The notes under the pieces: generated by a model
Database searches by the model: none
The model's input: only the letters and a program-made list of their open reading frames with translations
What the model was told of the DNA's origin: nothing
Assembly (NCBI GenBank): GCA_963741945.1
Contig: CAVUKA010000001.1
Location: 576,001 to 640,000, forward strand
Origin: an uncultured Gemmatimonadales bacterium
GTDB taxonomy: Bacteria; Gemmatimonadota; Gemmatimonadetes; Longimicrobiales; RSA9
Reading direction: 5' to 3'
Length of the DNA: 64,000 bases
Translations under genes and position numbers: made by a program
Shown: positions 60,645 through 64,000 of the stretch, one piece after another
Layout: every line of letters begins with the position of its first letter
Position numbering within the stretch: the first letter of the stretch is position 1

Positions 60645-62474
60645 ATGGGCCTCTTCGCGCGGATACGGGAACGGCGGCTGTTCCAGATCGTGGCGGCGTA
60701 CCTGGCGGCCGGCTGGATCGGCCTGGAGGTGTTCGACCAGCTCGTGGACCGCGAGGTGCTGCCGCGGGTGGTCTACACGATCGCCCTGGCCTGGTTTGCG
60801 GCCGGGATCGTGGTGGCGGTCCTGGTGGGGTGGTACCACGGGGAGAAGGGGAAGCAGAAGGCGCCGGTGCAGGAGATCGTCACCATCGCGGTGGTGGCGC
60901 TGGCGGTGCTCGGGTTCAGCGGCTCGTCCGCGTACGACTACTGGTCGCAGCGTCGGGCGCTCGCGGCCGCGGAAGCGTCGGCGCTGGACCTGGGCCGCGT
61001 CGCCGTCCCCTACTTCGTCGACCTGTCGGCCGCCGGTGAGCTGCGCCCGGTGGCCGATGGGCTGACGGAGTCGCTCATCGACGAGCTCTCGGAGGTCTCC
61101 GGTCTGGACGTGCTCTCCCGCAACGCCGTAGCGCCGTACCGCGAGGCCCGTGTGCCGCTGGACAGCGTCGGGCGTGCGCTGAAGGCGGGGACGGTGGTGG
61201 ACGGCGCGGTGGAGAAGGTGGGCGACGACGTGCGCGTCGTCGTCCGGCTGGTGGACGGCCAGAGCGGCGTGGAGTTCGACCGCGCGGTGCTGGAGCGGCC
61301 GGCCGCCGAGCTGCTGGCGGCGAGGGATGCGGTGGCGGAGGAGACGGCGAGGCTGCTGCGCGGGCTGCTCGGCCACCAGGTGCAGCTGCGGCACACCAAG
61401 CGGCAGACGGAGAGCCTGGCCGCGTGGACGCTGTACCAGCGCGCGGAGTTCGAGCGGAAGCAGGCGGAGGACGCCCTGCTCGAGGGCGACGCCGGGGCCA
61501 TGGCCACCGCGTTCGACCGCGCCGACTCGCTCCTCGTGCAGGCTCAGCTGCTCGACCCCACGTGGCCGGAGACGGCGGTGCTGCGCGGGCACATCGCCTT
61601 CCGCCGCTCCCGCCTCGGCACCGACCTGGACGACATGGTGGCGTGGGGGGACCGCGGCCTCGAGCGCGTCCAGGCCGCACTCGACCTCGACCCCAACGAC
61701 GCCCGCGCGCTGGAAGTGCGCGGCACGCTGAAGTACTGGCACTGGCTCATGGGCGTGATCCCCGAGCGCGACGAGAGCGACGCGCTGTTCCGCAGCGCCC
61801 GCGCGGACCTGGAGCGCGCCGTGGACATCGACGATCGCCTGGCCAGCGCGTACGCCTGCCTCAGCCACCTCTACCTGAACGCCCCGGACCTCACCGCCGC
61901 CGTCCTGGCCGGGCGCAAGGCCTACGAGGAGGACGCCTACCTGGCCGATGCCGACCTCGTGATCTGGCGCATCGCCAGCGCGTCGCTCAACCTCGGGCAG
62001 TACCGGGAGATGGCCCGCTGGTGCGACACCGGGCGCGAGCGCTTCCCGGGCAACTACCGGTTCGTCGCCTGCCAGCTCCTCGCCATGAACACCGACGCCG
62101 TGGAGCCCGACGTCCCCACCGCCTGGGACCTCCTGGCCGCCCTCGACTCCCTCGCCCCCGTGAACCAGCGCGACTGGGAGATCGCCCGCGCGCGCCTGGC
62201 CATCGCCGGCGTCCTCGCCCGCGCCGAGCTGCCCGACAGCGCCCGTGCCGTCCTCGCCCGCGCCCACCGGGGCATCACCGAGGCCGTGGACCCCACCCGC
62301 GACCTGCTGCTCGTGGAAGGTGAGGTGTGGACCCAGCTCGGCGATGACGACCGCGCCATCGACCTCCTGAAGCAGTACGCCGCCGCCAACCCCGGCACCG
62401 ACTTCGGGGAGCAGGGCTGGTGGACCAATCTCCGGCGCCACCCGCGCTGGAGGGAGGTCGTCGCCGGCGGCTGA
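60645..62474 (+). CDS. Membrane-anchored TolB-N-like/TPR protein
   Basis: Three N-terminal TM helices (RERRLFQIVAAYLAAGW), VAVPYFVDLS..ADGLTESLIDELS..LDVLSR domain, TPR-like helices. Confidence 0.8.
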   Translation: MGLFARIRERRLFQIVAAYLAAGWIGLEVFDQLVDREVLPRVVYTIALAWFAAGIVVAVLVGWYHGEKGKQKAPVQEIVTIAVVALAVLGFSGSSAYDYWSQRRALAAAEASALDLGRVAVPYFVDLSAAGELRPVADGLTESLIDELSEVSGLDVLSRNAVAPYREARVPLDSVGRALKAGTVVDGAVEKVGDDVRVVVRLVDGQSGVEFDRAVLERPAAELLAARDAVAEETARLLRGLLGHQVQLRHTKRQTESLAAWTLYQRAEFERKQAEDALLEGDAGAMATAFDRADSLLVQAQLLDPTWPETAVLRGHIAFRRSRLGTDLDDMVAWGDRGLERVQAALDLDPNDARALEVRGTLKYWHWLMGVIPERDESDALFRSARADLERAVDIDDRLASAYACLSHLYLNAPDLTAAVLAGRKAYEEDAYLADADLVIWRIASASLNLGQYREMARWCDTGRERFPGNYRFVACQLLAMNTDAVEPDVPTAWDLLAALDSLAPVNQRDWEIARARLAIAGVLARAELPDSARAVLARAHRGITEAVDPTRDLLLVEGEVWTQLGDDDRAIDLLKQYAAANPGTDFGEQGWWTNLRRHPRWREVVAGG

Positions 62475-62512
62475 GCCGCGTCGCGGCCTCTCCGTGTCCG
62501 CGCCCCCGCGCT

Positions 62513-62684
62513 CCGGCCGTTTTCGTGTCCGTGCTCCGGCCGTTTTCGTGTCCGTGTCCCGTGCCCCGGCCGTTTTCGTGTCCGTGCTCCGGCCGTTTTC
62601 GTGTCCGTACTCCGGCCGTTTTCGTGTCCGTACTCCGGCCGTTTTCGTGTCCGTGCCCCGTGCCCCGGCCGTTTCGTGTCCGCG
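62513..62684 (+). repeat. Tandem array, 7 copies of CCGGCCGTTT(T)CGTGTCCGTG (left)
   Basis: Units start at 62513, 62536, 62566, 62589, 62612, 62635 and 62665, with 2-9 nt linkers. Confidence 0.95.
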
Positions 62685-62686
62685 CC

Positions 62687-62829
62687 CCGTGCTCCGTCTG
62701 GCGTGTCCGGCAGTTCCCATCCGATGACCGCAAGAACACGAGCCGGCTCTCTGCCGTCCGAGCACCGAACCCCCGGACCCGGTCACGCCAGACGGACCAC
62801 GGACACGCAGTTCACAAACAGGGAGCACG
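62687..62829. repeat. 143-nt structured direct repeat, copy 1 (candidate ncRNA or cis-element)
   Basis: 132/143 identical to 63441-63583; 24-nt arms 62687-62710 and 62779-62802 pair with 2 mismatches. Confidence 0.9.
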
Positions 62830-62945
62830 TACGCGATCCCGCACCCGGCCCGTCCCGATCCGCCCCCCGTTCGACCCTCACGGCCATGGAGCACGCGCCG
62901 TCTGGGGCTCAGATTGAACTCCGGTCCGTCAACGGAGTGGCCGCG

Positions 62946-63323
62946 ATGCAGGAACCCGGGACAGTCTTCGAGTTCGAGAAGCTGGATGTGTACCAGCGGG
63001 CACTGGAGCTCAGGCCGCTCATTGCCGAGCTCGTGGCTACGCTGCCGCCCGGCTACGGCGACCTCCGCAGCCAGGCCGGCCGCTCTGAACGATCCATCCG
63101 TCTCAACATCGCCGAGGGCTCAGGCCGCCGACGCCCCGGCGGCAAGGTGGAGCGCTACCGCACCGCGCGCGGCTCCGCCAACGAGTGTGCCGCCGCCGTG
63201 GACGAGATCCGGCGACTCGGCTGCGCCGACACGCACCTCGCCCAGGAAGCCCTCACGCTCCTGCACCGGATCGTCTCCATGCTCACCCGCCTGATCATGA
63301 CCTGGGAAAAGCGACAGGATTGA
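62946..63323 (+). CDS. Four-helix-bundle protein (23S rRNA IVP / Avd-like family)
   Basis: FEKLDVYQRA..DLRSQAGRSERSIRLNIAEGSGR..ARGSANEC..IVSMLTRL family signature; GGAG RBS before ATG 62946 (alternative start 62886). Confidence 0.9.
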   Translation: MQEPGTVFEFEKLDVYQRALELRPLIAELVATLPPGYGDLRSQAGRSERSIRLNIAEGSGRRRPGGKVERYRTARGSANECAAAVDEIRRLGCADTHLAQEALTLLHRIVSMLTRLIMTWEKRQD

Positions 63324-63334
63324 CGCCCCGTGCC

Positions 63335-63439
63335 CCGGCCGTTTTCGTGTCCGTGTCCCGTGCTCCGGCCGTTTCGTGTCCGTGTTCCGTGCCCCGGCCG
63401 TTTCGTGTCCGTGTCTGCCCCGGCCGTTTCGTGTCCGTG
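63335..63439 (+). repeat. Tandem array, 4 copies of CCGGCCGTTT(T)CGTGTCCGTG (right)
   Basis: Units start at 63335, 63365, 63394 and 63420. Confidence 0.95.
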
Positions 63440-63440
63440 T

Positions 63441-63583
63441 CCGTGCTCCGTCTGGCGTGTCCGGCAGTTCCCGTCCGATGACCGCAAAGACATGAGCCGG
63501 GTCTCTGAGATCCGAGCACCGAACCCCCGGACCCGGTCACGCCAGACGGACCACGGACACGCAGTTCACACCCAGGCAGCACG
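63441..63583. repeat. 143-nt structured direct repeat, copy 2
   Basis: Offset 754 nt from copy 1; 29-bp stem 63436-63464 / 63533-63561 with 2 mismatches. Confidence 0.9.
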
Positions 63584-63587
63584 CAGT

Positions 63588-64000
63588 TCACACCCCCAGC
63601 TTCGCCTTGACCTCGTACAGCTCGTCCCTCAGCTGCGCCGCCCGTTCGAAATCCATGGCGGCCGCCGCCTGCTTCATCTGCTCTTCCAGGATCTTCGCCC
63701 ACTGCTCCAGGTCCACCTCGTCCGCGTAGCTCGGCTTCGGCTCGGCCACTTTCGCCAGCCGTTCCGCGCGCGCGTCGGCCACGCGCGTGCTCAGGATCAT
63801 CTGCTCGATGCTCTTCACGATGCTCTGCGGCGTGATCCCGTGCTCCTCGTTGTACGCCACCTGCACGGCCCGGCGGCGGTCCGTTTCCCCGATCGCCTCT
63901 TCCATGGACCGGGTGACCCGGTCCGCGTACATGATGGCGCGGCCCTCCACGTGCCGGGCCGCGCGGCCGACCGTCTGGATGAGCGAGCGAGCGTCGCGGA
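63588..64000 (-). CDS. uvrB: Excinuclease ABC subunit B (3' part only)
   Basis: RSLIQTVGRAARH.EGRAIMYAD..ETDRRRAVQ..YNEEHGITP and UVR domain MDFERAAQLRD. Confidence 0.95.
   Translation of the reverse strand, partial: RDARSLIQTVGRAARHVEGRAIMYADRVTRSMEEAIGETDRRRAVQVAYNEEHGITPQSIVKSIEQMILSTRVADARAERLAKVAEPKPSYADEVDLEQWAKILEEQMKQAAAAMDFERAAQLRDELYEVKAKLGV

Follow-up and report, generated by a model that had tools for sequence, protein, structure and literature searches.

Introduction

Proteins of PF05635/TIGR02436 form a very large family for which, to our knowledge, no function is known outside retroelements. Members of PF05635 are encoded by the open reading frame (ORF)-bearing intervening sequences (IVSs) of the 23S rRNA in Coxiella burnetii and Leptospira, and the S23p element of C. 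burnetii is described, in the part of the report cited here, as bounded by terminal inverted repeats that form a 28-bp stem cleaved by RNase III (PMC4990558). The cited portion of another study reports PF05635 as Avd-like (PMC10053308). A different type of system is formed by dispersed repeats: two inverted repetitive extragenic palindromic (REP) sequences and a spacer make up a hairpin-forming REPIN, which is thought to be moved by tyrosine transposases associated with REP sequences (RAYTs), according to the passages cited (PMC3337134), and RAYT genes are described as typically single-copy in a further report (cited part of PMC5581495). In this study, we performed a computational analysis on a window, that is, a whole stretch of 64,000 nt (G000:C1:576001-640000, where G000 is the genome of the window, 4.09 Mb and 96.7% complete), in which a PF05635/TIGR02436 gene, here called the four-helix-bundle gene, is enclosed by two copies of a repeat module. 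Our analyses suggested that this cassette is best read as built like an ORF-bearing 23S rRNA IVS and placed like a RAYT gene among REPINs.

Results

Association of the Four-Helix-Bundle Gene With a Hairpin Repeat

The cassette consists, in order, of a seven-unit array with a 143-nt hairpin block, the PF05635/TIGR02436 gene, and a four-unit array with a second block. This layout of two arrays and two blocks with a gene between them had been proposed from the letters of the DNA and its ORF list only (hereafter the sequence-only reading), and it was recovered in full; the blocks proved to be 143 nt long, 754 nt apart and free of indels as claimed, with 92% identity (11 of 143 positions differ). 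The gene gave the only PF05635 match in G000. A search of G000 with nhmmer yielded four full hairpins and four solo arms, and two of the four full hairpins, those of the cassette, flank this sole gene, the others being located at C3:770835-770992 and C3:60470-60593.

The search among relatives gave 75 non-self matches, of which the 31 best-scoring loci were examined; loci of the unpublished G016, G017 and G020 were left out, as were several matches located near the ends of contigs. Bracketing inverted repeats, scored by self-blastn at E up to 1e-3 with the two arms on opposite sides of the gene and 300-900 nt apart, were present at 22 of the 31 homologous loci, against 1 of 200 half-overlapping 3350-nt control windows (400 kb at arbitrary coordinates in nine of the same genomes). 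In addition, G013, from a third genus, had 2+2 modules around one homologue, and a G071-like genome of a second genus showed the hairpin-gene-hairpin layout. Because two of four full hairpins lie at the sole gene, because the layout returns in the G071-like genome and in G013, and because 22 of 31 loci are bracketed against 1 of 200 controls, the association of gene and repeat is real and recurrent, and not due to chance. These counts hold for the bacterial family surveyed, probably the Gemmatimonadaceae, whose PF05635 genes lie, as a rule, within complementary repeats.

Arms of the Homologous Loci

For 19 of the 22 arms the best period was 6 or 12 nt, with clear periodicity in eight, and arm sequence varied from locus to locus, even inside one genome. 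Arms or modules matched other places of their own genome in all five further genomes (G071, G013, G001, G010, and G009): the G071 module had one other locus, the G013 module at least 12, and one arm each from G001, G010, and G009 gave 23, 47, and 11 matches, respectively. With arms that recur elsewhere in the same genomes, the gene therefore relates to the repeats much as a RAYT does to its REP/REPIN family. What relatives have in common is the inverted complementarity across the gene, G001 having only one weak bracket at the uvrB site; the direct repeats emphasized in the sequence-only reading are not shared. Direct hairpin modules were read between and after two tandem genes in G007. A single-protein scan added nine loci, too few and too fragmentary for judging other phyla, with, by self-blastn, an inverted bracket at two (L089 and L093) and direct hairpin modules on both sides at one (L088).

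The arm motifs CCGGCCGTT and GGC[AC]GTTCC were ∼4- to 8-fold enriched in homologue flanks and occurred at only 4 and 7 of 32 loci, respectively; they are a feature of a subset and no rule. The longer motif CGGC[AC]GTTCCC, which adjoins the left arm at 62708 and 63462 in the cassette and is of the type seen at L003, recurs in cassette arms of other genera (L031, L056, and L057), with 5 matches in 24 kb of flanks versus 4 in 400 kb of background, at only 3 of 32 loci.

By reading, at least three genera carry a cassette at one and the same site, between a gene ending in ...HHPEAKYF and the start of a metH-like gene (L039, L058, and L062, in G036, G010, and G022). L065 (G021) appears to share the site, less surely, as its sequence starts inside the upstream motif. 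The arm units of these four loci differ completely (GGGCAA, GGCGGA, GGGCTG, and CGACTT types), and the set would be a good one for studying arm turnover.

The uvrB Site in Relatives

The uvrB 3' ends of 30 genomes of the family (including G000 and the unpublished G063) were collected, and 1.5 kb downstream was searched with the gene profile, three loci having <600 nt of downstream sequence. Matches were obtained in four: G000 and G001 (genus g1), and G071 and G056 (genus g5). The gene is intact in G000, G001, and G071; in G056 it is decayed by reading, with a frame shift, an in-frame TGA and the 3' third gone. G005 has no gene, and its uvrB spacer holds inverted heptamer-type arrays. The other 25 genomes showed no four-helix-bundle gene at this site, and in two of them a long hairpin directly follows uvrB. 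In G071 and the near-identical public record L088, the arrangement directly before uvrB is hairpin-gene-hairpin, and the two hairpins are 87% alike.

Compared with the G000 gene, the gene of L088/L101 (genus g5) is 60% identical and that of G001 at the uvrB site is 55% identical. Occupation of the site in two genera, with genes at 55-60% identity, indicates an old cassette that was passed on vertically. When aligned, the hairpin cores of G000, G001, and the G071-like genome show invariant stretches. Two flanking copies from one genome agree at 88 and 87%, versus 56-63% for copies from different genomes. We read the history of the uvrB site as one old insertion in the g1/g5 lineage that then descended vertically, its flanks being homogenised locally and the cassette decaying now and then. 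The gain and loss of a mobile cassette, which the sequence-only reading had considered possible, was not supported here: recent mobility, empty alleles and circles were not seen, and occupancy of the site in two genera is old.

Architecture of the Cassette

The features are listed in Table 1. Tandem Repeats Finder reported 62506-62660 (period 23 nt, 6.4 copies) and 63328-63450 (period 29 nt, 4.4 copies), which replaces the 21-nt period assumed before. Each unit of array 1 combines a shortened version of the left hairpin arm with the motif CCGGCCGTT(T)T. The array core CGGCCGTTT(T)CGTGTCCG has seven occurrences ahead of block 1 and four ahead of block 2, with none in the remainder of the 4.09-Mb genome; the array units are 87-93% complementary to the right arms over 15-16 nt. 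Both block stems are 24-29 bp long and 92-93% complementary with a 68-nt loop, the arms of block 2 being 29 nt and 93% complementary, and a single arm is, by reading, without self-complementarity. In RNA folding, block 1 reached -60.9 kcal/mol (z -3.3) and block 2 -67.5 kcal/mol (z -4.6) relative to shuffles. Across the gene, complementarity of 93% over 29 nt also exists between the right arm of block 1 and the left arm of block 2, which lie 628 nt apart, and the predicted fold favours the local hairpins. Formally, a repeat search described the locus as 1.45 copies of a 754-nt tandem unit.

TABLE 1. Positions of the cassette features and neighbouring genes in the window.
Feature	Position	Strand	Description
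Upstream 609-aa gene	60645..62474	+	ORF; stop ∼18 nt before array 1
Array 1	62492..62686	+	7 units in tandem with a period of 23 nt; spacing of 30 at two places
Block 1	62687..62829	+	Left arm 62687-62710, 68-nt loop, right arm 62779-62807
Leader motif GGCCATGG	62883..62890	+	∼60 nt ahead of start codon; read by eye, unscored
Four-helix-bundle gene	62946..63323	+	125 aa; 23S-rRNA-intervening-sequence protein family
Array 2	63328..63440	+	4 units, period 29 nt, same motif as array 1; begins 5 nt past gene stop
Block 2	63441..63583	+	Left arm 63436-63464, right arm 63533-63561
Block 2 tail, tandem repeat	63558..63595	+	16-mer twice, 22 nt apart
uvrB 3' end	63588..64000	-	PF12344 E 1.8e-23, PF02151 E 4e-8; convergent with four-helix-bundle gene

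The four-helix-bundle identity claimed in the sequence-only reading was confirmed by two profiles, both above cut-off: PF05635, with E 7e-16 and 58.8 bits against a cut-off of 33.8 and with positions 1-105 of the 106 in the profile covered, and TIGR02436, named 'four helix bundle protein', with E 2.9e-16 and 59.6 bits against a cut-off of 24. Comparison with orthologues placed the start at the ATG at 62946 and not at 62886, with GGAG 8 nt upstream. The homologue alignment contained the NIAEG-type motif and showed R41, S45, I50, E52, A69, S72, and L108 to be invariant. A profile built from 20 homologues matched PDB 2GSC (E 2.7e-18) and 2RLD (E 3.6e-8), each an entry with five chains. The closest named relatives of the gene are from Gemmatimonadaceae genomes. 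RVT_1 had no match anywhere in G000 at E 0.001, and the gene is therefore not a retroelement Avd. The ORF list showed no transposase, integrase or reverse transcriptase (RT) in the gap, in agreement with the absence claimed before. For 62300-64000, a comparison with Rfam at E up to 1 yielded neither rRNA nor any other family.

By eye and unscored, a GGC[CT]AT[TG][CG] motif lies inside the arms ∼60-90 nt 5' of many homologue starts (L035, L038, L040, L041, L050, L056, L058, L062, L063, L065, and L088), often preceded by a small GGCCGG...CGGCC hairpin. This leader motif may be a promoter element or a 5'-UTR signal.

The cassette occupies the gap between the stop of the upstream 609-aa gene (62474) and the convergent uvrB stop (63588). 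Of the claims made about these neighbours, both stops stood, and the 'TPR' label of the upstream gene is weak: TPR_11 matched below threshold only, at 17.4 bits versus a cut-off of 26.8. The orthologue of this gene in G001, of the same genus, is 94% identical. The final codons of uvrB, its stop included, fall within the second copy of the 16-mer in the tail of block 2. The C-terminus of UvrB reads ...KLGV in G000 and ...KLGA in both G001 and the G071-like genome, which indicates that the repeat rewrote the end of uvrB.

Dispersal of the Repeat in the Genome of the Window

The conserved repeat core reads CCGTCTGGCG ... CGCCAGACGG. The 22-nt arm core was found at seven loci of G000 with up to three mismatches, plus three weak matches with four mismatches, at which level (up to four mismatches) shuffled genomes gave 2-5 matches. 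Copies lie in spacers, mostly directly 3' of stop codons, and the hairpin at C3:60470-60593 is directly preceded by eight tandem arm 20-mers. No four-helix-bundle gene accompanies the five other core loci. G001 has two loci with the core, each orthologous to a site of G000; at an orthologous site the hairpin is 91% identical, much like its flanks (90%). The sequence-only reading had named a genome-wide repeat without enrichment near such genes as an outcome that would refute it. This outcome was half borne out: the module is dispersed and, with its five gene-less loci, not specific to the gene, yet two of the four full copies flank the sole PF05635 gene.

The gene-less hairpins were considered as scars of lost cassettes, an idea unsupported in our sample but not refuted by it. 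At the positions orthologous to C3:770 and C3:60, no four-helix-bundle gene was located within ∼1.5 kb in 24 other genomes (including the unpublished G017) and 17 other genomes (including the unpublished G063), respectively. Six other element loci and 31 homologue loci had no neighbour genes in common. A RAYT as the mobiliser was rejected: the sole PF01797 match (C1:755443-755721, 28.9 bits) has no core copy nearby.

Several copies have surroundings of their own. At L003 (G000:C1:680220-680540), the spacer separating an rfbB-like from an rfbA-like gene contains a solo left arm and, after it, an array of ∼250 nt of GTCCGTG/GTCCGCG-type hexamers, which by reading is in frame with the rfbB-like gene and adds to it a long D/T/A/G-rich tail. 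The solo arm of L006 (G000:C2:9875-9926) lies within a long open frame, 484 aa from stop to stop. L006 and L046 (G001:C6:1350672) share a 2-kb stretch that is 97.6% identical versus ∼90% at the other shared site, and this could be a conserved or a recently exchanged region. Both G013 (C3:719803-720002) and G000 (C3:60320-60593) carry a hairpin module of their own type just 3' of an orthologous gene whose C-terminus is 78% identical; either the element is old there, or the site attracts such repeats. Another tandem array, with a GCGGAGAACCGCCGGAGCAC-like unit containing GGGAACGGCCGG, is located at G000:C1:1171790-1171850 and may represent a further repeat family of G000.

DNA-Level and RNA-Level Signals

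Mismatches in 22 arm pairs comprised 21 G-U-compatible, 22 A-C and 117 other cases, without strand bias. A covariance check on the hairpin, as suggested by the sequence-only reading, gave conservation without covariation, with a compensatory change at 1 of 27 pairs. When the whole cassette was folded, both the minimum-energy and the centroid structures kept the two local hairpins and did not enclose the gene. The orientation of neighbours around homologues varies, and many are convergent or divergent. We lean towards DNA-level repeats with locally acting transcript hairpins over one long excised stem.

Contigs Covering the Cassette

Public contigs from three DNA runs of one study cover 62602-62703 and 62861-63358, and none spans a whole module, so that the reads neither confirm nor refute the duplication.

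Discussion

The cassette and the ORF-bearing 23S rRNA IVSs of C. burnetii and Leptospira have the protein family, a sporadic distribution among relatives and a gene framed by complementary sequence in common, the latter of 24-29 bp here versus the 28-bp stem described for Coxiella (cited part of PMC4990558). They differ in location, as the cassette lies between protein genes and not in a 23S helix, and in construction: each flank of the cassette is a complete hairpin in direct orientation rather than half of one stem, the arms belong to a dispersed repeat family, and their mismatch pattern is without sign of RNA-level selection. Like a REPIN, the element has two inverted arms and a spacer in a hairpin of ∼120-140 nt and is dispersed in spacers as solo arms and doublets, and, as with REPINs and RAYTs, a single-copy gene is flanked by members of the repeat family. 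In contrast, the flanked gene has no HUH/Y1 domain and is not a cognate RAYT, the arms are not palindromes, the copy number is very low (four full, four solo), and tandem partial arms precede the hairpin. Avd of diversity-generating retroelements (DGRs) belongs to a homologous four-helix-bundle fold family, the structural relatives 2GSC and 2RLD having five chains; with no RT in G000 at E 0.001 and no template/variable repeat pair, the locus is not a DGR. The blocks are also like ERIC and Correia/NEMIS, intergenic elements of 100-150 nt with terminal inverted repeats that give long hairpins in transcripts, and we know of no tie of these families to a four-helix-bundle gene. In the titles and abstract openings of the 23S-IVS literature searched, no such gene outside rRNA was described as framed by repeats, and among the PF05635/TIGR02436 papers listed none names the protein family in its title or abstract; within that literature, a link between a four-helix-bundle gene and framing repeats is undescribed.

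Taken together, the interpretation given in the sequence-only reading is supported in part, and the locus is probably an old, vertically inherited four-helix-bundle cassette with a copy of a dispersed intergenic hairpin repeat on each side. The repeats would primarily be DNA-level elements, and the two flanking copies may be kept alike through gene conversion or repeated duplication. Each transcribed copy is predicted to fold as its own stable hairpin right after a stop codon, that of the upstream gene, the four-helix-bundle gene or uvrB, where such hairpins might mark or insulate transcript ends. The four-helix-bundle protein may bind nucleic acid, possibly the flanking repeats.

Several observations weigh against this explanation. 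No bracket was detected at 9 of the 31 homologous loci, one of which has only 79 nt downstream, and L041 and L049 are near-identical within one genome, so that the 31 loci are not all independent. The G001 gene at the uvrB site had no repeat by blastn at E 1e-3, and a short-word search found one bracket only, of 29 nt and 86%; since the gene is retained there with such a weak bracket, strong flanks are not required to keep it. For some of the matches to arms in G010 and G001, simple hexamer composition rather than common origin may be the cause. With a compensatory change at so few hairpin pairs, the sequence is conserved and the structure itself is without evidence of selection, and a scan of the cassette for consensus sigma-70 promoters and U-tract terminators returned 0 and 0. 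Finally, the contact between protein and repeat, the role at transcript ends and gene conversion are steps that we infer.

The simplest competing explanation is coincidence, with hairpins of the type of REPs or miniature inverted-repeat transposable elements settling in spacers beside a small dispensable gene to which they have no functional tie. The five other element loci without such a gene, the location of elements in spacers and mostly directly behind stop codons, the G001 orthologue kept with degenerate arms only, and the lack of a gene at the orthologous positions of two gene-less copies (0 of 24 and 0 of 17) all fit this account. We nevertheless regard it as unlikely, given two of four full hairpins at the single PF05635 gene of a 4.09-Mb genome, the same layout in a second and a third genus, and the excess of bracketed loci over controls. 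Somewhat harder to sustain is an RNA-level cassette in the manner of a 23S IVS, whose arms would pair in a read-through transcript so that RNase III cuts and the mRNA is released or silenced. The protein family is the one encoded in rRNA IVSs, the stems of 24-29 bp recall the RNase III-cut 28-bp stem between the terminal inverted repeats of the Coxiella element (PMC4990558, in the part cited), and the right arm of block 1 is 93% complementary to the left arm of block 2 across the gene. However, arm mismatches have no strand bias (G-U 21, A-C 22, other 117), local hairpins win in both minimum-energy and centroid folds with the gene unenclosed, neighbour orientation around homologues is variable, and the leader motif seen by eye inside the arms points to a promoter or 5' UTR of the gene itself that lies downstream of the 5' arm; all in all, this mode of action is quite improbable.

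A recently mobile unit, in which gene and module move as 754 nt, for instance in the form of a circle that integrates into a resident module, and are lost via recombination between direct repeats, would explain why the locus amounts to 1.45 copies of a 754-nt tandem unit; direct repeats at this distance are recombinogenic, and G005 has the gene-less inverted-array remnant at the same site. It is very unlikely in view of the occupied site in two genera with a gene diverged to 55-60% identity, modules that are alike within genomes and different between them, the lack of transposase, integrase and RT in the gap and of RVT_1 genome-wide, and, as a weak test, the lack of any contig with a deletion or junction form. 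An artefact of assembly, that is, a second module arising from a collapsed or mis-joined repeat, can be given hardly any credence. The public short contigs do break inside repeats, and one loose end leads to another copy of the element, but the gene is connected with the beginning of array 2 on one contig, and array 1 with block 1 on another, both possibly from the source sample. An artefact is unlikely because 11 of 143 positions, as well as the number and type of array units, distinguish the copies, and because an independent genome has the same layout.

Beyond the preferred reading of an old, repeat-framed cassette, a wider and doubtful generalization is conceivable, in which PF05635 proteins are trans-acting partners of dispersed hairpin/tandem-array repeat families, each gene sitting among its own repeat. 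A ring-forming protein would then attach to the arms in DNA or RNA form and so contribute to maintaining, copying or taming the repeat family, and rRNA IVSs would represent the particular instance in which such a unit landed in a 23S gene. The locus is a useful test case, with a complex conserved 22-nt core instead of a simple hexamer, with a copy number low enough for each one to be tracked, and with a single gene of the family in the genome and relatives in intact, decayed, gene-less and empty-site states. The origin and spread of rRNA IVSs and of short-period intergenic hairpin repeats are unexplained, and a reproducible link of the gene to dispersed complementary repeats makes these questions and that of the protein's function testable: whether the protein binds its own arms, and whether repeat families rise and fall with the gene. 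If true, the generalization to trans-acting partners would provide a first function for a very large protein family and an origin for short-period intergenic repeats.

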